Assembly: GCA_010093705.1 (NCBI GenBank)
Contig: MU006091.1
Coordinates: 868,001 to 932,000, forward strand
Reading direction: 5' to 3'
Source of the DNA: Patellaria atrata CBS 101060
Taxonomy: Eukaryota
Length of the DNA: 64,000 nucleotides
Positions 3,049-53,624 of this stretch are shown piece by piece (the first letter of the stretch is position 1; each line of letters begins with the position of its first letter). A program made the translations under genes and the position numbers. The notes beneath the pieces are model-generated. The model searched no databases and was not told the DNA's origin. It was given only the letters and a program-made list of their open reading frames with translations.

Positions 3049-4672
3049 CTAATGGTCAACATCTTCCCAGGCCCGCCCCTGAACCTGTTGTAACTCCTCT
3101 TCAGTTAGTTTCTTACCTGTCGTAAAGTAACCTGCATGTATCTTGGCATCAATCTCAACTCTACTGTCGTCCGGAATCATCTCGTCAGGAATCGGGACGC
3201 GTTCTTTAATTGGAATTCCCTGGGAAACAATTGCATCGTGTTTCATATTGCTCATACTCAACATGCGATCGATTTTGGTGATTCCCAACCAGTGCAGGAT
3301 ATCTGGCATGAGAGCTTGGAAACGCATGTCTTTTACGCCGGCAATATTCTCGGTGCGCTTGAAATATTCGCTGGCGCGATCGATACCCCGTTTCCGTGCG
3401 TTGTATACGAGGTATTTAGTCACTTCTCCTAGCGCGCGACCTTCTTTCCGGAAATATATGACAACCCCTGAGCCCCCATTCTGCGCCTCCTTAACAGCTT
3501 CTTCAACGCCGAAAATTAGGTATGGACGGCAGGTGCAGATATCTGAACCGAAAACATCACTCCCGTTGCACTCGTCGTGGACCCGGAGTGCCAGCCGAAC
3601 GTTAGGGTCGGCCATTTTTGCTGGGTCACCAAAGCAGTACACAGTCAAGCCACCAATAGGAGGAAGGAAGACCTTGATATCCCCTCGTGTGATCAGTTCT
3701 GGATAAGAACCACCAGTTTCTTCGAACAGAGTACGGCGAAGGGTTCCTTCATCGATACCAAAGCGTTCGGCCACACCAGGAAGATACCAAACGGGTTCGA
3801 CGGCGAACTTGGTTACGGCGAGCTCACCTTCTTCGTTGATACATATTTTACCATCCGGTACAAGACGGCCGGCTTTAACGCTTTCAACTAGCTCAGGAAG
3901 AATCATGTGAGCTTTGGTAACGGCTATGGTAGGACGTATTTCGACATTATCGTTGTCAATGTAAGACTTGAAGAGCCACGGCGCAAGGTGACCCAGCGGA
4001 TCCATAGAGACGATCTTCTTGGGATCGCTCCATTGGGGAAATGGCCCGATGTCTGCCGCTGGTTCTGTGTTTGTGAAGTCAGGCTTATGCTCAATATTCA
4101 ATGTTTTGCTTGCAACTGCCAGGGCATGATAAATGGAGTAAGATCCACCGTGCGCACCGATAGCTGGGGATTATGTTAGTGACATTGTCTTAAATAAATG
4201 GTAAAAGGAGTTGTTTTGCCATACCATTCCTTCTCCGGATAGAAGTTGTATGTCTGGACACTACAACGGGACCTCTTTGCGCAGGATCTTTATGACCCCA
4301 ATTCATGATAATAGGATCAACGCCCGCTTGACCAGGGTACGATGTTAAGATAATCTTTGAATTGACACTAGAACGACGGGGACTTGCAGTAACAGGTGCA
4401 ATTTCATATTGCTCTTGGACATCCGCTACACCATCTGCTGTTTTCTTCGTCATTTCTTCTTCGTTTTCTTTCAGCTTCCCTTCAGTGATAGCAGTACCAT
4501 CTGTGGCAACTTCTTGCACTTGCTTTATACCCGCCAACATATTAACCCTTCCATTGATTGCATCAATCGCGGATGACAAAGAAGAATTGTCCCGCTGTAA
4601 TGCTTTGATGTTTGACAGTATCTCACTTAGCACGCTCGAGACATCATGTCCCGGAGTTACCGAAGAAGCCAT
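3049..4672 (-). CDS. URC1: GTP cyclohydrolase II-like protein of the URC1/urg1 type (uracil catabolism); 2 exons
   Basis: Spliced RRNAIGAHGGSYSIY N-terminal domain, plus RVHDECNGSDVFGSDICTCRPYL Zn-binding motif and RKEGRALGEVTK. Confidence 0.9.
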
Positions 4673-5568
4673 ATCTGCGAGGAGCTACGAATACGCTCTA
4701 TCAGATTCACGATAGCAGAAAATGGGCACGGCAATAGTAACTTGATAGGTATAAATGTGACTGAGATATGGCGGAGACTGGGGAGAGTCCGTAGATAGTT
4801 AGATAGAGATTGCCCTTGTTGGACAACTAACAAAGGATGAATCTATGGTGGATTAGGTTTGCAATGTCAGACCGCTGTATGACAAATGAAGTAAAGATCA
4901 CCGGAGGCGCAGGAAGTTTGTGAGAATGAGATTGAGGAGAGAAAAGAAGATATGTAGAACGTCAGGTTTCTGCTAGAAACACAATACTTATGTAGTTGAA
5001 GGTATCGGATCCAAGGCTCCGTAAGTAGGTAAGGTATTTCGTTGACACCTCCGCGAACACCTGCCCTTATCGAATTATTGATACACACGCGGCTACGGTA
5101 GAACTACTACTTGGCGGGGAAGCGGTTATCAGAGGTCCACGCCTCGATCCGATTGACGCATGCAGTGGAGCTGGCATCTCCAAACTGGGACACCAGACAG
5201 GCACGTGAGATATGACAGGAAGAGAAATAACGAGAATCGATTGCTGATGGCTTAACACGGCTGAAACAAAAGCAGTCAAAGAAATTGTTCTATTTCGGAA
5301 ACTGAGGGCGGTGTACGTTTCCAAGCTAAAGAGCTAGGGCAGATTGCTATTGTGGAGCCGCATGCCTATTGTTCTTCGTACCTTGCATGACTTCATCGTC
5401 AATAGCAACAATAGTAAGCTCTCAAAAGTACAATAACCGTCAAATTCGCACAATAGCATCAGAAAGCACAATAGTCGCTCGCTAAAGCACAGCAACATTT
5501 ATAAGTAGTGAATGTAGAACAGACCTCTGCTGTTCTTCAAAAATCCACACATTCAATCTACTTTCAAA

Positions 5569-6186
5569 ATGGTGGGTTCAAAGTCTACTAAATTCTACAA
5601 ATTCCTGTCAAAAAAGCCACTTTACCAATCACACTTCCAGGGCAAGCGCAAGAAAGCTGCCAAAAAGCCTACAGGCCCAAGAAAGGTTCGTAACCGCTAT
5701 ATTCCTATACTCCGAAGTCATCCAGCTGAATCATCTCTTCAGAAAGAAGCGCTCTCAACCACATTCCAATGCCTCTTTTGCAACCACGAAGACTCCGTGA
5801 CCGTCAAGATGGAGAAGAAACTCGGCGTCGGACATCTTCAGTGCAAGGTGTGCGGACAAACCTTCCAGACAGGTATTAACTGTACGTACTGAGCCCACAC
5901 TCGCAAAACCTCATAACCCACCCTCAAGATGTCGTTTACTGATCATTCTGATTCTCAAGATCTCTCATCCGGTGTCGACGTTTACGCCGACTGGGTCGAC
6001 GCATGCGATGCTGTCGCCAAGGAAGCTTCCAATGCCTCTTCTGCCACTGCCAAAGAGAGACAGCGCAACGCACGCGTTTCCTCAAGAGCCCCACGACAAA
6101 CCGCCGCTGCTGGAGATGGAGAAATGGATGGCTTTATCGAAGACGATGAGGTTGATGCAGAAGGCGAATTTGCAGATGATGGTTAA
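5569..6186 (+). CDS. ELF1: Transcription elongation factor Elf1; 4 exons, first coding exon is the ATG alone
   Basis: M|GKRKK, FQCLFCNHE...CKVCGQ zinc ribbon, VDVYADWVDACD, acidic tail. Confidence 0.95.
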
Positions 6187-6403
6187 TCACAGTTTACCTT
6201 CAGACTCTGGTCAAGGCGTTTATGTTATCTATCAGTCCCGAAATGGTGGTCACTAGAACTATTACCTACTGGGTGGCTGGATCTGGTGTTTATGGCACAT
6301 GCATTGCAATAGCGTAATGGGACATTTACCAAGAATGATCTTACTTGAATCGATGATCTTATGTGCGCTTAATCCACACTGATAGATATGCAATGCTTAA
6401 CGC

Positions 6404-7335
<932 letters not shown>

Positions 7336-15737: not shown

Positions 15738-15837
15738 NNNNNNNNNNNNNNNNNNNNNNNNNNNNNNNNNNNNNNNNNNNNNNNNNNNNNNNNNNNNNNN
15801 NNNNNNNNNNNNNNNNNNNNNNNNNNNNNNNNNNNNN
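15738..15837. other. Assembly gap (100 N)
   Basis: Run of 100 n followed by poly-A. Confidence 1.
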
Positions 15838-41199: not shown

Positions 41200-41270
41200 T
41201 GCGACCAACGGGACTCGAACCCGTGCCTCAAGCATGGGAAGCTTGAATTCTACCCCTGAACTATGATCGC
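41200..41270 (-). tRNA. tRNA-Gly(CCC), intronless, 71 nt
   Basis: GCGATCA/TGGTCGC acceptor stem plus discriminator A, D arm GTTC-AGGGGTA-GAAT, anticodon arm CAAGC-TTCCCAT-GCTTG, T loop GGTTCGAGTCC, downstream T runs. Confidence 0.95.
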
Positions 41271-41825: not shown

Positions 41826-44124
41826 CTATTTCGAACAACAATCCTTCGGTTTTGCACTAACACTCTTCCGATCCGTTTTATCCCACTTCCCTCCACTCGG
41901 ATAACTACTATAGCTCGGCGGGACATCCAAGCATGGATTCCGCGTGAAGAAGTTCCGCGGGCGCAACAGCAGCGTCATCGGCTCCGCCGGCATGACGGGG
42001 AAGTCCTCGGGAGACGGGAAATGCGTGATGCCGAAGGTATGCCAGAGCACGACGTCGGTGTTATCGGTCGAGGCGTCGGGGTCCGCGGCGATCCAAGCGG
42101 GCAAGCCCATAGACGGGACGCCGGAGGTTTGCGGGACATGCCGACCTGCGGGGTGGATTTGTGCGTCGTCGTCTAGCAGAAAGGTTAGTATCGTATAATC
42201 GAGCCCAGGCGCCCCCCCCCCCCCCCCCGGGGGGAGGGGGACCGGTTGAGGGATCGAAACTCACATTTCGTAACGTGGATGGCGTGACGGGCGAATCCGG
42301 CACGCTTCCACACTAATCCGCCTTCCTTAGGGAGAAGCTCCGGGACTTCGCGGCTGACGAGCTTGTAGGAGACGGGCTTGTGGCTGTATGGGTTGATCTT
42401 GTTCGGATTGCACATCTCCCACGTCCGGCTCGTTGCGCCGTTGTAGTCGCTCATGCTGCTTCCTTGCGTGGCTAGTTTCTTCTTCTTCGCGTAGAACGCG
42501 TTCCCGTACTTGTTCTCTGCCGAGCCGACCTCTCCTGGGCCCCTAGCAGCGTCTACTTCGAAGACTGTATTGGATGGCCCGTCGATATTGGGGTCGACGC
42601 GTAGGCAGAAGAGATGTTGGTGGTTGTGTGCATTGACACCGGGGTAGACTTCGGTTCCCCAGCCCTGAGGATCCTCACCTGGGTTCATGGCATAGGTGTT
42701 CAGAATACCGGTCAGTTTGATCTCGAGCTGGACGGTTCCGTCCTGGTGGAAGATCCAGTATACGCAGTACTCGTAGTTAGCGGCAGTGAAGATGTGGGAA
42801 ATTACTAGTTTATGTGCGCGAGTTACAGTTACGGAGTCGTCTCTGAAATCGGTCTGGAAGATGTCAGATCGCTCGTAGGTCAAATCGGGGTCGATTAGAA
42901 CTTACATGTTTAAACAGTATTCCAGCGTCTTCCTCGTGAATACAAATGGCGTTTTTTATGGTAGTAGCGGCACCTGCACGATTGACAAAAGCTGCATCCA
43001 TGTAATAGATAGCTCCTTTGCAATCACAGCCTAAGCTCAGACTGTTTGTCATGTAACCACCTCCGTACTCTCCAAGATCGAACGCATGTTTCCGATGATG
43101 AGGGTGCTCAGGATTACCATACGGTACGACCATCTCCGCCAGGGACAGTCTCCAGAAAACGGGTCGGACATTACCTTTGTCGTTGAAGGTGATATTGCTA
43201 AGGACAATCCCTTCCCGGTAGTTAAAGCCGACGTGGACTCTCCAGTTTTGCCAATTGATGATTCTACCTTCCATGGTGAATGAGACACCCTCCGGCTGAG
43301 TGATTTCGATAGGCTTGATATCGGTTCGGAATCCACCTTCCGCTTCGATAGCTGCGGCATGATAATTGTTCGGCGGTGCCTTGTTGACAGGCCTTCGTAC
43401 CTTTGGAACATCGATGTGGATGATCTCTTGTGTATCTGCGTTGAAGATTGGGCAAAAATCCAGAGGATAGCTATACTGGCTGTCGTCCACATGCGGTCGG
43501 AAGTACATCAATGCCTGCTGGAGGCGGATATTGCTGCCGAAACGCTCATCATATCCAATTGTCCAGGCTGTGTTGAAAGGTTAGCAATATCCTTGGACCA
43601 GGGGGAAGGGGGACTAACGGTCACAATACACCTTGTGCATGTCTTCCGGTGGAATCCCTATCAGCCCGCACTGTTCAATGACCTTGGGGTCTTTCCGGAC
43701 TATAGTCTCTACGATTTGTAGATCCTCCATTGTGATCTAAAGCACTATTTAGTTTATAGTTCAGTATAAGGGGGGAAAGACTATTCACCAATGGCTGCAC
43801 ACCCTCCGTCAGTTCCCAATGCACGATTTTCTCCTCATTCAGATCCACATGGCCATCATAGACCTTGCTCCCTCTCCCAATGGCCACCACATCAGCAATT
43901 CTGTGCGGTCTGGGAGTGTGGTCGGGATCTGCCACCCATTTCATCATCTCCGACTTCCGCGGTTCCCATAATGTAATGGCATTGAAGAAGAGGCCGTCAT
44001 GTTCTTTGCGTATGATGGCAACTGCTTTCTCAATCTCCACTTCTGAAAGAGGGTCGAAAGGATGAGGAGGCGGACTCTGGCCTGTCACGTGGGAGGCGAC
44101 CTGCTTGAGACGTTCAAGTACCAT
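41826..44124 (-). CDS. Copper amine oxidase, probably peroxisomal; 5 exons
   Basis: TAANYEY topaquinone motif, HNHQH Cu ligands, THFPSPEDFPVMP; N-terminal RLKQVASHV resembles PTS2. Confidence 0.95.
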
Positions 44125-44956
44125 TGTGGGAGTCCGTGTAGTCAATTGTTGAGCTTTTTCAATCCTAATCTCGATGTGTTACTCGTTAGTATTTGAGCTC
44201 TCTCGATGAGAATTCCTGAGATGATCAGAAAATCGAATGAGACGGGAATCGAGTTTTAAATAGTCATGATATTCAGGAAAGGGCTGTCTTCAAATATTAT
44301 TTATATAGATTATCTACCTGTTATCGCTCTGGATCCCTCCACGGCTGGGTCAGAGGGGCTGCAGAAGCGTTGTATGGCTTAACGTTGAATCTCAAGCTCC
44401 GATAAGTGACTGTTACCAGTCTGTCAGTCCCTCCGCTAAACCAATTACGGTCATAAAACCCGAAGAGTTGGATTTCAAGTCCAATCTAGGAGATACAACA
44501 TTGCTATGCCCTACTTTTAGCATCCTCTTCATGTGGAGTGACCCCTCTCGTTTCCGATCACCAGCAATGTGAATGGGTTGCTATTGGCCTGTTGTGGTCA
44601 AGCGGATAGTGAAATGGAAGATATTCCGCAATGTCAGGAGCAAAGAATTGCGACTACCGCAAATAAGACATGTATAACGGATGCCGGTATGTCGTACTGC
44701 TCTAGAGCCTCTATCTACCTTATCCACTAGAAGTACCGTTAGGCCCACGTACTGAACTTTCAATTGTGCCGACATGAGCCGATCCGATGGCACCTCTGAC
44801 CTTATTTGACCGTCCGTACGGTTATACCATTGGCCTCCTCCCTATCACTCTATACGTGAACTCGTAGAGTGATAAGTGTATACATTTCCTATCGTGGAAG
44901 GACTGGCTCGCTGTACACTTATGCTTCACAAGACTTTCATGTAGCTCCTGATCCTG

Positions 44957-45709: not shown

Positions 45710-48700
45710 TTAAGGGACCCCTCTTTCAATGTCCCGACTATTCCTCATCTTGAACCCGGTGATTAAGCCACCGTTCTCAACTTTCCTCACACTGGGTGCT
45801 GAAGTCCGACTGGTGACTGGCAGCAGGTAATTTTGAATCCTGTCAGTTTCCACGCTCTTGCGGTTTGTGCTCAGGATATTCTCCATCTTTAGCAAATCAT
45901 TTTGCTGATGCGGTTCACAGTTCTTTTCTGTTGCGCGCTTGCGTCGTTCATGTACACGTCTTCGTACATCGTGATAAAGGTCGGCAATATTGTCCAATTG
46001 TAGTGCAATAACGACCAAAGGAATGGAGATTGCAAATCCGATACCGAACATGTATTTTGAGACGTACGATAAAGGTAAGCTTTCGCTGCCGTCATTTTCC
46101 CGAGGAAATTCGCGAATATTTATGGTGAAGAACGCTGCAATAAAGCTGAGCGGGAGAAAGATGATGGTAACAATCGTAAACACCATGATTGTCTGACTCT
46201 GTTTTGCGGTACCTGCTGCTTGATCACGAGCAAAACGTGCTTCGAAAGCATTGGCATGTTTCTGCTTGAGATCCAGGAGGTCAGTGATGGAAGAATATAT
46301 CCGCTCTGCTTGCTTGTCCATGCGTTCAATATCTTTAATATGCATCTCGATAGTCCTTTGCTGCTCTCTTAGACGTCTTTTCACGTCTGATTGGTTACGA
46401 TGTTCCTCTCTAAAGATATCACAAATAGCCATCTCAAGGTCCTGAAGGACAGTAGCCTGGTCTTCTAATACTTTACGAATCATACTCAGTTCATCCCGTA
46501 TATCTTTGGTCTCTCGGACAAGGTCTGTTTCTTCTCCAATATCTAGAAGTTTATCGACGAAGAGGGGAGAGTAACTTGGATCGTCATATTTGAAATGATC
46601 TTCTTTCCCCGCCGCCCTTTGAGTTTTTCGAGAAGTCGATTCAAGTTGACGAAAGAAACGATTTGGGCGACGGTGTCTCTGCAGCCATTCAGATGCTTGT
46701 CTCGAAGCTGCGTTGAAGTCCGAAAAGAGCTTGGACTCCTTGTCTGTCGCGCTTCCAATACTAGCCTCGAACATATCGAGGAACTGGTAATCGCCATCGC
46801 CCATGCGATGTCTATCAAAGATGCCTGAGCATCTGGCTGTGATTATTAGCGCGAGATCGTATACGGACCGAACGGGATCCCGAGTTTTGGAATTAATATC
46901 TTCGATGATGCCATCCAACACGTTCAAGGGATCGTTCCTCGGTTGTTGCCATCGCTGTGGAAAGGAAGTGACAATAAGATCTTTCCCTAGAATATACATG
47001 AACAGTTGGTCTACCATATATATCTTCGCATCGATATCACAGTTATCACCACCTGCGCTCCTGGTCTGATAACGGTAGACGACTTGATCACGATCACGAT
47101 TTTGCGTATCGATGTTGTGATAAAAGTACTGATCTAGGGTCCGTCTTACATGAAGAGAAAGGGTGGATGTTGCTAGATGGGCTCTGAGAAGCATCTCATC
47201 GGTTGTTTTAGCTTTCGTGACGGCTTGCTGTCCGTTTAGGAGAGTTGCACGCTTGATAGCCTCTTGCATCTCTTGCCGTTTTGCATCGGTTTCAAAGTGC
47301 AGGTACGGCATGAAGGTATAAATATTGCCCTTTGCAATTTGTGTGGGATCTTTACGACCTGGAGAACCGGGCGACCTCCAACTTCTGGACTCAATGGGAA
47401 GGCTTACTTTGCGCTTCCCGTCTGATTTGGAAGTATCGTGGGTGATCTTAACAGGCTTTGAGCCCTTTCCTGAACCCCTCTTCTCCTTTTTCTCATTGGA
47501 CGGTTTACTACTGCTGAAAGAGCTTGTTGATTGATTCTCTCGCACATACTCGGCTCTTCCTTGCCGCTTAGGAATCTCGGGTGTTCTAGGGGTTTGAGCG
47601 TTTCCATTCACCACAATCGTTGGAGTAGGAGGCGTCTGGTCCGTAGGTGATTGCTGAGCCTCTTCGTCTGGTATACGTGGTGCTCTCGGAGTGCTATGAC
47701 ATAACGGGCGCATAAAGTGGGAATGAACTTGTTGACCACGATGTTGATGCGTAAAAGATCTTTCTAAAGCTTTAAACCCTTCGATATCGGAAGCTCCTTC
47801 CTCAATGAAGGATTTCGTAAGCAGAGCTTCGACCCACTGCATATTGTTCGCGGGTAGGTGAATCCATCTGAAGTCAGCGGCCTTGTTGTCTTTTGGAAGG
47901 ACAGTGATTGCAGGTTTTCGAGAATTTTTAGGATCTCTACCATATAGCAGTTCGTAAATCGTTCGTTTCTTCACTTGATTCTCATTGCGGAAATTGCCAA
48001 AGTCGACAATAGTGGCACTAAAACCATTGGCGGCGCCAAGTGCATCTGAAGATAAAGCATTAACGTTGTTGGAGGGGGCCAGTAGGTTAACTACATCTTT
48101 GCGTCTATTCTGAGCGGCTCGAAGAAATGGAGTACTGCCGAACGTATCTCTTGCTGCTCGCTTGATCTCCTTGCGTTCAAGCAAACATTTGACGACGTCT
48201 AAATGGCCTTCTTCGGCAGCGATATGCAATGCTGTCTTCCCGTTCAGAAGCCTTGAGTTAACGTCTGCACCGGAATCTAGAAGCATACGAACGATTTTAG
48301 CACAACCTTTAAGGCAGGCATTGTGAAGTGCCATCCATCCTCCGTCACTGATTTGATGTACATTTGCGCCATGTTCAAGAAGCAGTCCCACGATATCATC
48401 CCGGTCATGCGCGGCAGCTATATGAAGACTAGTCTTGCTTCGAATCTCAACAGAATTTACATTCGCTCTTGGATACTTGCTTCTTGTCAGTAACTGCTCT
48501 GCTAGCCTCTTCTTTCCGGTCGCGCAAGCCCAATGCAATGGAGATCGCTTCAACTCATCCTGTCCCGCTTCTCCGTCGATATGGATGTTGACCTTCAAGA
48601 GCAACTCGATAACAGAATCTCCCCAATCGCATATTTTGTCTGCAGCGAGATTGTGTAGGACGTTCCTTTGCTTCGAATCCTTCGCATTCACATTGGCGCC

Positions 48701-49123
48701 TTTGATGATAAGGAGATTCAGTACATGCCAGTGATTCTTCCACGCAGCAGTCATCAGAGCTGTCCGTCCCTTCTTGTCTGCAGTCTCAGGGCTAGCTCCA
48801 TAGTCCAGGAGTAATTGTACAATCCTTATATGGTTATGTTCTACGGCTCTCATCAATGGTGAAGCACGATTCCCGTTTGCTCCATCTGACCTGGCACCAC
48901 AGTTAAGCAGATATTGTGTCGCATTGATCTTCCCCTTTTCGGAGCTCCTTAGTAGACCGATCCTTAGGAAGTTATCGCTGATCTGACCTTTGGACTTTGC
49001 TGCTTCGATGACCTCCTTTAATGTCTCAACATCGTCATTCTCCGCCGCGCGTAGTAGCTTAGGTTCCAACCGTTCTTGATTGACACTCCCTCCATCGGTT
49101 GATCTTGATCGATCGCGTGGCAT
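45710..49123 (-). CDS. Ankyrin-repeat protein with a C-terminal CorA-like two-TM domain (1137 aa, single exon)
   Basis: Repeated ankyrin units (GRTALMTAA, SPLHWAC, TSLHIAA, GKTALHIAA) in the first ~350 aa; WIHLPANNMQWVE, RRTLDQYFY, MVDQL; coiled coil then VFTIVTIIFLPLSFIAAFFTINI and a second TM helix. Confidence 0.85.
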   Translation of the reverse strand: MPRDRSRSTDGGSVNQERLEPKLLRAAENDDVETLKEVIEAAKSKGQISDNFLRIGLLRSSEKGKINATQYLLNCGARSDGANGNRASPLMRAVEHNHIRIVQLLLDYGASPETADKKGRTALMTAAWKNHWHVLNLLIIKGANVNAKDSKQRNVLHNLAADKICDWGDSVIELLLKVNIHIDGEAGQDELKRSPLHWACATGKKRLAEQLLTRSKYPRANVNSVEIRSKTSLHIAAAHDRDDIVGLLLEHGANVHQISDGGWMALHNACLKGCAKIVRMLLDSGADVNSRLLNGKTALHIAAEEGHLDVVKCLLERKEIKRAARDTFGSTPFLRAAQNRRKDVVNLLAPSNNVNALSSDALGAANGFSATIVDFGNFRNENQVKKRTIYELLYGRDPKNSRKPAITVLPKDNKAADFRWIHLPANNMQWVEALLTKSFIEEGASDIEGFKALERSFTHQHRGQQVHSHFMRPLCHSTPRAPRIPDEEAQQSPTDQTPPTPTIVVNGNAQTPRTPEIPKRQGRAEYVRENQSTSSFSSSKPSNEKKEKRGSGKGSKPVKITHDTSKSDGKRKVSLPIESRSWRSPGSPGRKDPTQIAKGNIYTFMPYLHFETDAKRQEMQEAIKRATLLNGQQAVTKAKTTDEMLLRAHLATSTLSLHVRRTLDQYFYHNIDTQNRDRDQVVYRYQTRSAGGDNCDIDAKIYMVDQLFMYILGKDLIVTSFPQRWQQPRNDPLNVLDGIIEDINSKTRDPVRSVYDLALIITARCSGIFDRHRMGDGDYQFLDMFEASIGSATDKESKLFSDFNAASRQASEWLQRHRRPNRFFRQLESTSRKTQRAAGKEDHFKYDDPSYSPLFVDKLLDIGEETDLVRETKDIRDELSMIRKVLEDQATVLQDLEMAICDIFREEHRNQSDVKRRLREQQRTIEMHIKDIERMDKQAERIYSSITDLLDLKQKHANAFEARFARDQAAGTAKQSQTIMVFTIVTIIFLPLSFIAAFFTINIREFPRENDGSESLPLSYVSKYMFGIGFAISIPLVVIALQLDNIADLYHDVRRRVHERRKRATEKNCEPHQQNDLLKMENILSTNRKSVETDRIQNYLLPVTSRTSAPSVRKVENGGLITGFKMRNSRDIERGVP

Positions 49124-49532
49124 CCTACTTTTGCAAACGTTTTGTATGTTTTATAGCATAGTCGTACACGTTCAGCACCGTACGTCTCGGCGGGCGTGCT
49201 TGTCAAACGATATGGCGGCGAATCCTATCTGGTAATAAGGACGAGTATAGGCAAAACTAGTAAGGAGCTTTAGTTTGGATCGAGTTCGGAGGCTTATAGG
49301 TCGCTCTCTCTGGGAATTTCTATCAATTAGTTGTCGCCAAAACCAGGGGATCCATTCTAAGCGATTGTGAAGGTAATATAGACCCAATTGTTGGGGTTTA
49401 AAGGTGGCAGAGTCTCTACATATCGAACTGTACCACAACAGTTGAGGTAGGAGTCTTGGCTAAAGAAAGTTCCCATTTCAGCTCACCGCAGTTCGTCATG
49501 TCCTGATCTGCAAACATGACAAAACAGCTCCA

Positions 49533-49683
49533 TATCCAGTCCGGGGATAAGAAGCTGTGGATAGATCGGTCTCCCTATCCAGAAATCAGATAAGGAACAA
49601 CATATCTCTTGGCATCAGGAACATCCGCGGACCATAGCCCGTACTTTCCTTATCTTCCCAGACTTCCCCAGATTTCCCCAGAG
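49533..49683. promoter_or_regulatory. Cluster of GATA cores around a TCCGCGGA palindrome (putative AreA/NIT2 plus NirA/NIT4 element)
   Basis: GATA/TATC at 49533, 49546, 49560, 49576, 49589, 49603, 49651; TCCGCGGA at 49624-49631; three TCCC(C)AGA copies at ~49655-49682. Confidence 0.55.
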
Positions 49684-50285
49684 CCTCATTCTTCCTTAAA
49701 CCAGCTTCAGACGTCAATCCAACTTTGTACATCCTCATCATTGATTCTATAAACATCTTCGCCTACTATAATACCGTTTTCAACCCCGAAAAGATGTATC
49801 TTGACAGCTGGATGGTCCTCCTCGGAAATTCGAGACGCCAATGCGGAACGTCTGGAGCTCTTACGTTATGAGAAGGTTCGCACGAACCGCAAATTTGGTA
49901 ATGGGCAGCAGAATCGAGTTAACCGCAGCAAAGTGATGAGGGAACAGTACCTACACTGAAGATGATTCCTTAGCTCCAGGGTTCTTTGATCGTTTACCAA
50001 TGTCACACGCCGTCTTCGAGTTGCAGTTGTGGCCGAATATTGGCTCCTTTTGCTCTTGATGGGCCAGGAACAAAGCCTTGGGACTTTGGACGTTATTTGA
50101 GGCTTCCCGAGTTCCTGAATATGCCGTGAGCCTGTATACGACACTGAGATGCCCTTAATCAACTGGTTGGCCCTGTTCCGGTGCAACGTCCGCTTCGCTA
50201 CCTCTACTCACACTATTTTGGTACTCTTGTACAGTACTCTACTCTTGTTCTTTAAAGTCGTTAGACAACCAGGAATTGTATCAAC

Positions 50286-51366
50286 ATGATTAGAAGGTTA
50301 AAGGATATAAAGGCCACTGATCTGCATTGGGATGTAGACTACTATATCAATCCATATATACCATCTTCACAATTACGCCGGCTTCCTACGCTACTTTCAC
50401 GCTTCCTGGGCTATCGTGAGAATACTACACAAGATGTTGGAAATATCTTGATATGGTTCTGGTCCGCAGTGGGAACCTTCTGTGGCCTCACTCTTGTAGC
50501 CGGAGTATTCATGAACGGTCCTGCATGGCACTCTCATCATCCTCCTGCTCTAGTTGCTAGTTTGGTACGGTTAACCCTATAACAAACAACCCACATCTTA
50601 CCATTTCCCCTCACCCCAATATTGCAAACACACAAATTGACATCCCCAGGGCGCCGCTGCAATCCTCGACTACAACGCCATCGCCTCCCCCCTCGCCCAA
50701 CCCCGCAACAGCGTCATCGGCCACATCCTCGCCGCCCTCACCGGCGTCTCAGTCACCAAACTGATATCCCTCTCCCCCCACTTCCAAGAACTGCGCTGGA
50801 TGACCGCCGCCGCCGCCTGCGCCCTCGCCTCTGTCGTCATGGGCGCCACAAACACGACCTACCCGCCCGGCGGCGCCACAGCCGTCCTCGCCGCCTTCGA
50901 CCCGCAGGTCACGGAGCTCGGCTGGCTCTTCGTCGGCTTGGTCGCCGTCGCGAGCCTGCTCATGTTGACCGTCGCGCTCCTCGTCAATAATCTGCAAAGG
51001 CGCTTTCCGTATTTCTGGTGGACACCCGTCGATCTGATCGAGTTGAGACGGAAACGCAGATCGGGAGATGTGGAACAGGGGAAGGGAGCGACGAGCCGGC
51101 TGGATGTGAAGCGGAAGGAGAGCGTGGAGTTCAGGCGCACGCAGGATGATGTTATCATCTTGAGAAAGAAGGAGATCGTGTTGCCCGAGGGCTTGGTCCT
51201 CGCGCCGGAGCAACTGGGCATGGTGGAGATGTTGCAGGAAATGTTGAGGGAGAGGACGCATCTGGCGCCTCAGCGGAGTCACTCGAGTAGCGAGTCGACG
51301 CCGTTCGAGGAGAAGGAGAGGGATGGGGAGGAAGAAGAGGAGCATAGTCGCCGTTCTAATCAATGA
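50286..51366 (+). CDS. HPP-family integral membrane protein (331 aa); exons 50286-50564 and 50650-51366
   Basis: ASL|GAAAILDYNAIASPLAQPRNSVIGH, TYPPGGATA (HPP motif position), NNLQRRFPYFWWTP; several TM helices. Confidence 0.88.
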
Positions 51367-51585: not shown

Positions 51586-53624
51586 CTAGCCACCCCCAAG
51601 CATCTCCCCGACAACGCCCCCAATGGCGCCCCCAACCTCCCCAAAGAATATACTCTTAAGCACAGTCTCCATCTCGCCCTCGACCCACTCACCCGCCCTA
51701 ACCAGCCGGCCCCGCCACACCTCCCGCTCATGCTTCTCCAGCTCCTCCCACTTCCGCGCGCCCCCGCTCTTAACCGCCTGTTCCGCGTCGACGACCTCAG
51801 GCCTGACCTCCCTCTCAGACGCAGGGTCTTCATCCGGCACGAGAACGACGGCCTTGGCGTCCGACTGCGGCGTCCCCTCCCGCCGCTCCTTATGGTGCGC
51901 GTGCAGGTGCGGCATATGGTGTCTGACGAGGTCGCGCAGCGAATGGCTTACTTTAGCCACGGGCGGCGCATGGACGTCGACGTCGACGAAGTGTTCAGCG
52001 TTCTCGAGGGCCTCGCGGACGCGGTCGGCACGGCGTGCTTCGAGGACGCGTTCGCCGGGGGCTTTGAGGCCTCCTAGGGCGGTGCGGATGGAGGGGGGGA
52101 GGATGTTGAGGCGGGTTGAGGGGGTGTCGCCGCGTTCGAGGGCGAGGGCGTCTTGGTAGCTTTGGAAGAGGAGGGCGCAGACGAGGAGGACGAAGGCGGC
52201 GACGAAGACGGTGGCGGCCGTGTGGAGGTGCTCGGATACGTTTGGGGATAGGGTGTGGCGCGTGTCTGGGTTCTTGTCGATTGGGTCGAGGGAGAATGTG
52301 TCGATGACGACGGTGTTGCCCATGGATACGGAGGCTAGGCGGAGGTATTGGGGGGATGGTTTCCTGCGGATCTCGGATGTTGAAGGGGTTATGGGACGGT
52401 GGAAGGGCGACCAGACTATGCGCGTCATTTGGAGGGGGTGCACGTCGCGGAGGGTGATGTATTTCTTGAATTTGCTGACGGTGGAGGAGGAGGGGTAATG
52501 GTCGATTGTTAGCACACTGATGGAGATGTCCTGCCCTGCGACGGCGATGGCGATCTGGCGAACACCGGTGCGCGAGTCTGGGTCGAGAGGACAGACGTCG
52601 AGGCCAACGGCCGCTTTGACATGGCTTCCGAGACGTTTGCGTAGAGTTATCTGGCAGGGCCCTTCGGGGTAGAGGCGCAGGACCGACAACTCTGCGCCGG
52701 TCTTCTTATCGAGATTTGAGAGAAGGAGTAGGTGATCTGGAGATAGGAAGCGTACCGCGCGGAATTTAGATCGTTTCTTGGACTCAAAGACATCGGGGTA
52801 AGGAGTCTCGTAGACTCGCCGCGCCTCTGCGTTCTTTCCCCCAGCTTTACGCTGGACGCGAGTGATGTGAATGGAGTAATCTGTACAATACGCTACGGCG
52901 AATTCGTCTTGCCCTGTTTCAATGATATCAAGGTCGGCAGCTTCTTCACCCTCAGGAGGATATAATCGCTGAATTACTTCTCTTGAGGAAGGTGAAGACA
53001 CTGTCGCATCGAAGAGGACTATCTCCGCTTTGTCCGCCAGCCCTGTACAAATACCCCCGATTCTCTTACTTCCTGAAGTGCGTAAATGCGCCGGTGATAA
53101 CCGTATTACCCTCTGATATGTTTCGTTCTTGCTTGACTTCGGCGGGGACGCAAACAGCTGTGTCTTCCCCAGAAACTCAATCGTACCATCTTGTATCTTT
53201 TCTTCTGACCCTTGCGAACCCTTTGTCTTCAGGGGATACGACACGAGAAAGGATCTAAAGTGCTCATTCTTTCCCGCCTGAAGCTGTTTCTCACTCGAAT
53301 TGATACCCGCTTGTACTACTAACCCATCTTTAGCGGCGAGGGTTGCTAAGGAAGTCACGGAATCCTCGTCCCGGGAGAGTTCGATTTCGGCAGCGGACTT
53401 TATCTCAGTGCGGGAGGAGACGTCTAGGAGTGTCTGAGATAGGGCCAATCAGTTACAGGAACTGAGGGCGCAATGGTATTTGAACGTACAATTTTGTTAC
53501 CAACTCCACTTCGCCCCTCCCCTCCTCCGCCAGCTACGACGAGATAACCGCGACCGTACGGGTCGAAATCTGCAGCATATAGAGGATATGAGAGTGTGGT
53601 TTTGGTGAATGAAGGAGCAGGCAT
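51586..53624 (-). CDS. SEC12: Sec12/PREB-like Sar1 guanine nucleotide exchange factor; 2 exons
   Basis: YPLYAADF...VAGGGGEGRSGVGNKI K-loop region, beta-propeller body, LASVSMGNTVV, single TM helix. Confidence 0.85.

Follow-up and report, generated by a model that had tools for sequence, protein, structure and literature searches.

A GATA-rich patch with a Zn-cluster-type palindrome in the divergent promoter of an HPP-family gene of Patellaria atrata: an accurate but statistically soft motif match

We analyzed a 64,000-nt stretch of the genome of Patellaria atrata CBS 101060 (Dothideomycetes), hereafter the window, in which an HPP-family membrane protein gene and an ankyrin-repeat/CorA-like gene diverge from a common intergenic spacer. 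This spacer contains a compact patch of seven GATA cores around the CCG/CGG palindrome TCCGCGGA, an observation that is accurate but statistically soft. We read the spacer as an ordinary divergent promoter with a generic composite element for a GATA factor and a Zn-cluster factor, most likely nitrogen-related, and give this reading a probability of about 0.35. The patch rises only weakly beyond chance, and nitrate or nitrite control through it would be a guess made from the letters.

An earlier note on this DNA had described a 1.16-kb divergent promoter with seven GATA cores in about 120 bp, where about one is expected by chance, around a perfect palindrome of which it had noticed a single copy. 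Each of these statements could be reproduced. The spacer has the length described (Table 1), the GATA/TATC cores start at 49533, 49546, 49560, 49576, 49589, 49603, and 49651 and span 122 bp, the window background of 569 GATA cores per 64 kb corresponds to 1.07 per 120 bp, and TCCGCGGA occurs once in the 64-kb window. As sequence facts, the dense cluster and its palindrome thus stood, whereas their standing as something exceptional did not, given the chance-level frequency of the octamer and the recurrence of GATA clusters in the window.

Four of the seven patch cores derive from two longer repeated words. The direct copies CTCCATATCCAG and CTCCCTATCCAG, which lie 43 bp apart, are the source of two non-consensus GATA cores, while the inverted 10-mer AGATAAGGAA/TTCCTTATCT, with 48 nt between its arms, houses both consensus HGATAR sites of the patch. 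These two AGATAA sites, at 49588 (plus strand) and 49650 (minus strand), bracket the palindrome, one 26 bp upstream and the other 14 bp downstream; the remaining cores read GGATAN (four) or AGATAT (one). The tandem units that follow the patch include two with CCCCAG, a SYGGRG match on the opposite strand.

The palindrome agrees with the octamer CTCCGHGG at 7 of 8 positions on either strand. According to PMC3020322, CTCCGHGG is the NirA consensus, through which NirA works together with AreA. Words within one mismatch of TCCGCGGA number three in the spacer, where 0.53 are expected, a mild enrichment. Besides the palindrome these are TCCGGGGA, inside the patch, and TCCTCGGA, whose minus strand reads TTCCGAGG and therefore carries the TCCGHGG core (49820, minus strand); the other place in the spacer with this core is the palindrome. 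NIT4 is said to bind TCCGCGGA, a finding reportedly due to Fu et al. in 1995; our literature search for the word together with NIT4 returned no paper linking them, the lone match being a list of absent words.

The density of the patch was compared with 3000 Markov-1 simulations of the spacer (49127-50285, 1159 bp), in which seven or more GATA cores within 123 bp were reached 15 times. By our own arithmetic, the two seven-core clusters of the window together make up about 0.4% of its length, and the single octamer sits in one of them.

The patch is a compact part of the shared promoter, some 400-750 bp away from each start codon and built mainly of two direct copies of CTCC[A/C]TATCCAG and two inverted copies of AGATAAGGAA, with the CCGCGG palindrome between the AGATAAGGAA copies. 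If it is functional, the two consensus AGATAA sites would most likely be bound by an AreA/NIT2-type GATA factor and the palindrome by one of the many Zn2Cys6 factors of the fungus, and the outcome would be nitrogen-status-dependent control of one or both flanking genes. NirA/NIT4 would be the leading named candidate for the palindrome, though nothing singles it out. The HPP product, in turn, may pass a small anion such as nitrite, as suggested by its invariant Gln, Arg, and Asn residues and by the gene neighborhoods of its prokaryotic relatives.

Table 1. Features of the divergent locus, in window coordinates.
Feature	Position	Strand	Remarks
Ankyrin-repeat/CorA-like membrane protein gene	45710..49123	-	Single long open reading frame; Pfam
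Divergent intergenic region, common to both genes	49124..50285	.	1162 bp, ATG to ATG
Direct repeat CTCCATATCCAG (49528-49539)/CTCCCTATCCAG (49571-49582)	49528..49582	+	11/12 identical; repeat search
Patch of seven GATA cores	49533..49654	.	Two fit HGATAR
TCCGGGGA	49540..49547	.	One mismatch to palindrome; inside GATA patch
ATCAGATAA, SreA-type extended GATA motif ATCWGATAA	49585..49593	+	Sole match in window
Inverted 10-mer AGATAAGGAA (49588-49597)/TTCCTTATCT (49646-49655)	49588..49655	.	100% complementary; repeat search
TCCGCGGA palindrome, Zn2Cys6-type CCG/CGG site	49624..49631	.	Sole copy in window
Three tandem TTCCC(C)AGA copies	49655..49682	+	Directly 3' of patch
TCCTCGGA	49819..49826	.	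One mismatch to palindrome; minus strand is TTCCGAGG
HPP gene exon 1	50286..50564	+	93 codons; ATG at 50286
HPP gene intron	50565..50649	+	85 nt, GTACGG...CCCCAG
HPP gene exon 2	50650..51366	+	238 codons + stop; TM_HPP core, YPPGGA motif, C-terminal domain

The two exons of the HPP gene, when spliced, gave exactly P0001, a 331-residue P. atrata protein annotated as "HPP family protein," with exon 2 identical to it at 100%. By its sequence, the product is a true TM_HPP member: exon 2 matched TM_HPP (PF04982) with 124.8 bits against a gathering cutoff of 27.2 (E value, 3.1e-36; Pfam), and exon 1 extended the match over profile positions 4-41. It belongs to a conserved Pezizomycotina HPP orthogroup, its nearest homologue among the matches listed being 51% identical. 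An alignment of the 120 best homologues contained 17 invariant columns, including Q110, R112, N207, and R210. We also built a FastTree tree of 119 rows, drawn from 83 of the first 120 matches (at least 270 amino acids), 25 sequences from later searches, and every seventh bacterial open reading frame (ORF). Fungal rows tracked taxonomy, and P0001 formed a long branch within a well-supported Dothideomycete clade of 38 rows.

An AlphaFold2 model of the protein (pLDDT, 80; pTM, 0.69) predicted six long helices (residues 53-77, 89-102, 111-133, 142-160, 165-183, and 186-209) and a confident C-terminal strand-strand-helix element at residues ~253-298 (window positions 51043-51179). This element coincides with a sequence block conserved across fungi, which follows a variable charged linker and has no Pfam match. 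In this model, a small, conserved C-terminal domain on the cytosolic side comes after the six long helices. Neither sequence nor profile searches found relatives in the PDB, and Foldseek against the PDB gave no match at an E value of ≤0.001; its top rows were the anion channel AtALMT1 (E value, 0.6 to 0.9; TM-score, 0.24 to 0.30), a nonsignificant lead.

A search of genome contigs that covered bacteria and archaea yielded at least 572 confirmed prokaryotic loci, and the counts given here refer to the best 80 of these and to neighbors no more than 6 kb from the HPP gene. These 80 came from Desulfobacterota, Nitrospirota, Bacteroidota, and a few other groups (32 to 47% identity), with no cyanobacterial title among them. 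A gene for a separate CBS-pair protein was present at 24 of the 80 loci, a CLC channel gene at 9, and hcp (Prismane) at 6, while genes for a NapC/NirT cytochrome (nrfH-like) and for hemerythrin were each present at 2 to 3. Some of the hcp-bearing loci also carry NapC/NirT or NIR_SIR genes; beyond the recurrent neighbor clusters, among the 100 ORFs scanned out of 239 neighbor ORFs within 1.8 kb, an NIR_SIR protein at a single locus (L051) was the sole nitrogen-oxide match. In Desulfovibrio desulfuricans, the HPP gene Ddes_0524 lies four genes from hcpR1 and is upregulated under nitric oxide (NO), as stated in PMC5701242. These relatives lend real, if minority, support to a nitrite/NO link and broader support to an anion-related, CBS-regulated membrane function.

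At five Bacteroidota loci (L008, L010, L013, L014, and L019), a gene for a CLC-type channel lies 3 to 45 bp behind the HPP gene on the same strand; the HPP gene occupies about 6001-6500 in most of these five loci and 3653-4108 in L013. This pairing suggests a two-gene anion unit in Bacteroidota. One further contig, titled as a Bifidobacterium breve metagenome-assembled genome (L018), has a Bacteroidota-like HPP gene that neighbors a gene with a Por_Secre_tail domain (type IX secretion) and is therefore probably misbinned.

HPP-family proteins reportedly transport nitrite in cyanobacteria and chloroplast envelopes, as papers citing or paraphrasing Maeda et al., 2014, have it. The earlier note knew of no such role described for fungal HPP proteins, and this was nearly right, with one exception. 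In a Fusarium graminearum preprint, plasma-activated water containing nitrite and nitrate upregulated the HPP-family gene FGSG_02821 more than any other gene (1731-fold), and the authors voice the hypothesis of a nitrite/nitrate response. Beyond this preprint, our literature search found no link between fungal HPP proteins and nitrite; a Botrytis paper on NO and a Cryptococcus paper contained nothing on HPP function. No Aspergillus or Neurospora name was among the matches listed in three lists of 120 HPP homologues, and F. graminearum was not named among the matches listed for the Colletotrichum and Fusarium homologue queries, though many Fusarium species were. The classical model regulons may therefore lack this HPP gene.

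Several results weigh against reading this locus as a nitrogen-controlled promoter of a nitrite transporter, and they come from the DNA as well as from the protein and its relatives. The window has one copy of TCCGCGGA where 0.87 would be expected, and the octamer turned up at least once in 60 of 100 shuffles of the window that preserved dinucleotides. None of the five window copies of the full NirA consensus CTCCGHGG lies in the spacer, and TCCGHGG numbers 18 in the window against 20.4 expected. In window-wide simulations (300 runs, with the N run skipped), clusters of at least seven GATA cores averaged 0.16, compared with two in the actual window, and clusters of at least six averaged 1.03, compared with five, a number that no run reached. 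The second seven-core cluster, at 47021-47122, lies within the ankyrin/CorA-like coding sequence, and such clusters thus arise without promoter function; with clusters elsewhere in the window, one of them in coding DNA, clustering is a general property of this DNA. No more than two of the seven patch cores fit HGATAR, and the whole spacer contains four HGATAR sites against 3.6 expected. A cluster at 4699-4805, with five of its six cores fitting HGATAR, is much closer to the AreA consensus than the focal patch. Counts of SYGGRG and of the stress response element (STRE) across the spacer were as expected, a self-BLAST of 49500-49720 found no second copy in the window, and an Rfam scan of the spacer gave no matches. 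Moreover, the patch lies 410 to 531 bp from the ankyrin/CorA-like ATG and 632 to 753 bp from the HPP ATG. As a self-contained stretch of the shared promoter, dense in motifs, it is not assignable to one gene.

The protein and its relatives add to this side of the balance. The name-giving His-Pro-Pro reads YPP in the P. atrata protein (residues 164-166, window positions 50775-50783), within the YPPGGA motif. Among the 120 aligned homologues, P0001 included, the first position of the motif is His in 110, Tyr in 9, and Phe in 1, and HPPGGA is kept in 73 of 74 bacterial relatives. In the FastTree tree the Tyr and Phe rows are scattered within the Dothideomycete clade, and P0001 stands beside a His-bearing row. 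Of the 80 prokaryotic loci, 74 had no nitrite- or NO-metabolism gene among their annotated neighbors within 6 kb. An Aspergillus nidulans nitrate transcriptome does not use the term "HPP" in its main text or one supplement, and the supplement also lacks "membrane protein"; this silence is weak evidence, given that no Aspergillus orthologue was among the matches listed. Finally, the patch also fits the motifs of unrelated regulators, as set out below, and we roughly estimate that about one such coherent motif story would arise by chance in a window of 64 kb.

That estimate leads directly to chance co-occurrence, in which the patch has no regulatory role and amounts to a coincidence that a reader would meet about once per 64-kb window. 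We consider this possible, if on the doubtful side. It accounts for the frequency of the octamer, for the five clusters of at least six GATA cores (one of them in coding sequence), for the two consensus sites among seven cores, for the spacer-wide HGATAR, SYGGRG, and STRE counts, and for the lack of a further copy of 49500-49720 in the window. The lone ATCWGATAA of the window also falls into the same patch, where it would back a quite different story. What chance does not readily produce is the local organization: the core density reached in 15 of 3000 spacer simulations, an exact inverted 10-mer together with an 11/12 direct 12-mer within 130 bp, the three words within one mismatch of TCCGCGGA in a spacer expected to hold 0.53, and the placement of the single octamer in one of the two seven-core clusters. 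The same organization could serve other regulators or the other gene, for example, a SreA-type iron-responsive GATA repressor acting through ATCAGATAA on the CorA-like gene of metal-transporter type, or a Pdr1/Pdr3-like or other Zn2Cys6 factor acting at TCCGCGGA. The patch is nearer to the ankyrin/CorA-like ATG than to the HPP ATG, and four of its seven cores are GGATA, in repeated words other than HGATAR. ATCWGATAA is overrepresented in promoters of SreA-regulated iron genes, as PMC2610380 reports, and in bioRxiv 10.1101/2023.08.11.553033 the canonical type A pleiotropic drug response element (PDRE) of yeast Pdr1p/Pdr3p has the sequence TCCGCGGA. Yet ATCWGATAA, as a one-degenerate 9-mer, should occur about once in 64 kb when both strands are counted (our own arithmetic), is seen about as often as chance predicts, and is no more significant than the octamer. 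A metal-transport role is uncertain as well, since the CorA-like domain lacks GMN. We regard service to other regulators or the other gene as improbable. The PDRE, SreA, and "NIT4" words are all single copies at about chance frequency, which makes it cheap to fit a known motif to a plausible neighboring gene.

The interpretation offered in the earlier note was more specific: NirA/NIT4 at the palindrome and AreA/NIT2 at the GATA sites would make the HPP gene inducible by nitrate or nitrite, and its product would be a transporter of nitrite or a related anion distinct from NitA and NrtA/B. It is a reasonable and fair hypothesis, plausible in itself and neither supported beyond plausibility nor refuted, and in this specific form we hold it unlikely. 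An exact TCCGCGGA stands with two consensus HGATAR sites within 30 bp, and there is a second TCCGHGG core at 49820 on the minus strand. On the protein side, the nitrite transport reported for cyanobacterial and chloroplast relatives, the HPP genes tied to nitrite/NO in Desulfobacterota, and the strong induction of FGSG_02821 in nitrite/nitrate-containing water all point the same way. Set against this are the statistical caveats on the octamer and the GATA cores, which apply in full, the absence of CTCCGHGG from the spacer, the position of the patch closer to the ankyrin/CorA-like gene, the identity of the octamer with the PDRE, and the YPP in place of HPP. Plasma-activated water brings other stresses, and FGSG_02821 is likened to the P. 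atrata gene by family only. The classical NirA/NIT4 regulons are no help, with no Aspergillus or Neurospora among the matches listed, and because fungal nitrite reductase is cytosolic, the logic of plastid import does not transfer to fungi. We prefer the ordinary divergent promoter with a generic GATA-factor and Zn-cluster element, which leaves the Zn2Cys6 factor unnamed.

On present evidence, the promoter is ordinary and its motif match suggestive but weak in statistical terms, and the locus is one data point for a comparison of orthologous promoters. Should the nitrate/nitrite reading hold, the well-studied fungal circuits of nitrate assimilation and nitrosative stress would gain a new transporter family, and a conserved Pezizomycotina orthogroup now annotated only as "HPP family protein" would gain a function; the locus would be a new member both of the HPP-family anion transporters and of the promoters controlled by AreA with a pathway-specific Zn-cluster factor. 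A wider extrapolation, to which we assign a low probability, is that fungal HPP proteins might form a third, hitherto uncharacterized class of membrane proteins that handle nitrite, alongside FNT-type NitA and MFS NrtA/B. Nitrate, nitrite, or reactive nitrogen would induce them via AreA and a site of the NirA/NIT4 type, and they would act in nitrite export, detoxification, or organellar supply, not in bulk uptake, with the present locus as a promoter example.

The other flanking gene is a single ORF of 1137 codons (ATG at 49123-49121, stop at 45710; ORF map). Its product matched Ank_2 (E value, 2.9e-67) and other ankyrin models, and a CorA-like C-terminal domain (E value, 3.4e-13), in Pfam. 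The CorA signature is GMN. No GMN tripeptide is present anywhere in this protein, and Mg2+ transport by it is therefore doubtful; the sequence FFTINIREF precedes the last two hydrophobic segments. Elsewhere in the window, a copper amine oxidase gene of several exons occupies 41900-44200 on the minus strand and encodes an enzyme type typical of nitrogen catabolism; it is adjoined by a tRNA gene at 41200-41270 on the same strand (Rfam, 64.9 bits). A 620-codon ORF at 51586-53448 (minus strand), without a Pfam match, converges on the 3' end of the HPP gene. The GATA cluster at 4699-4805 lies directly upstream of a minus-strand GTP cyclohydrolase II-like gene (3049-4684). No nitrate-assimilation genes were found within the 64-kb window, which includes an assembly gap of 100 N at 15738-15837.

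Among known systems, the closest promoter models are those of niiA-niaD in A. nidulans and nit-3 in Neurospora crassa, which are controlled by NirA/NIT4 together with AreA/NIT2. Like them, the P. atrata spacer is about 1.2 kb long and places a Zn2Cys6 site close to HGATAR, and niiA-niaD is also divergent. Unlike them, the P. atrata patch combines a single exact palindrome with no more than two consensus HGATAR sites and lacks a full CTCCGHGG, and the window is free of nitrate-assimilation genes. The yeast type A PDRE is identical to the octamer TCCGCGGA; the PDRE is defined in Saccharomyces, however, and the P. atrata locus has neither a drug-pump gene nor an orthologous regulator gene. The iron-responsive GATA sites of SreA, Urbs1, and Fep1 find an exact match in ATCAGATAA, here a single site, and both flanking genes fall outside the known iron-uptake families.

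At the protein level, the P. atrata product resembles the cyanobacterial and chloroplast HPP nitrite transporters in its TM_HPP domain, small multihelix membrane core, SPLAQPRN-type loop, and xPPGGA motif. It differs from them in that an N-terminal stretch and a C-terminal helix/strand/strand/helix element are conserved additions of the fungal orthogroup, the signature His is replaced by Tyr, and the organism has no plastid. FGSG_02821 and the P. atrata gene share the fungal HPP family, with the response of FGSG_02821 measured under a mixed-stress treatment. Bacterial HPP proteins, at about 200 amino acids (median, 198), lack the fungal extensions, and a separate CBS-pair gene often adjoins theirs. 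The HPP genes of sulfate reducers, such as Ddes_0524, are among the closest prokaryotic relatives in the best 80 of at least 572 loci, with 40 to 47% identity over the core, and they are linked to HcpR and nitrosative-stress genes.

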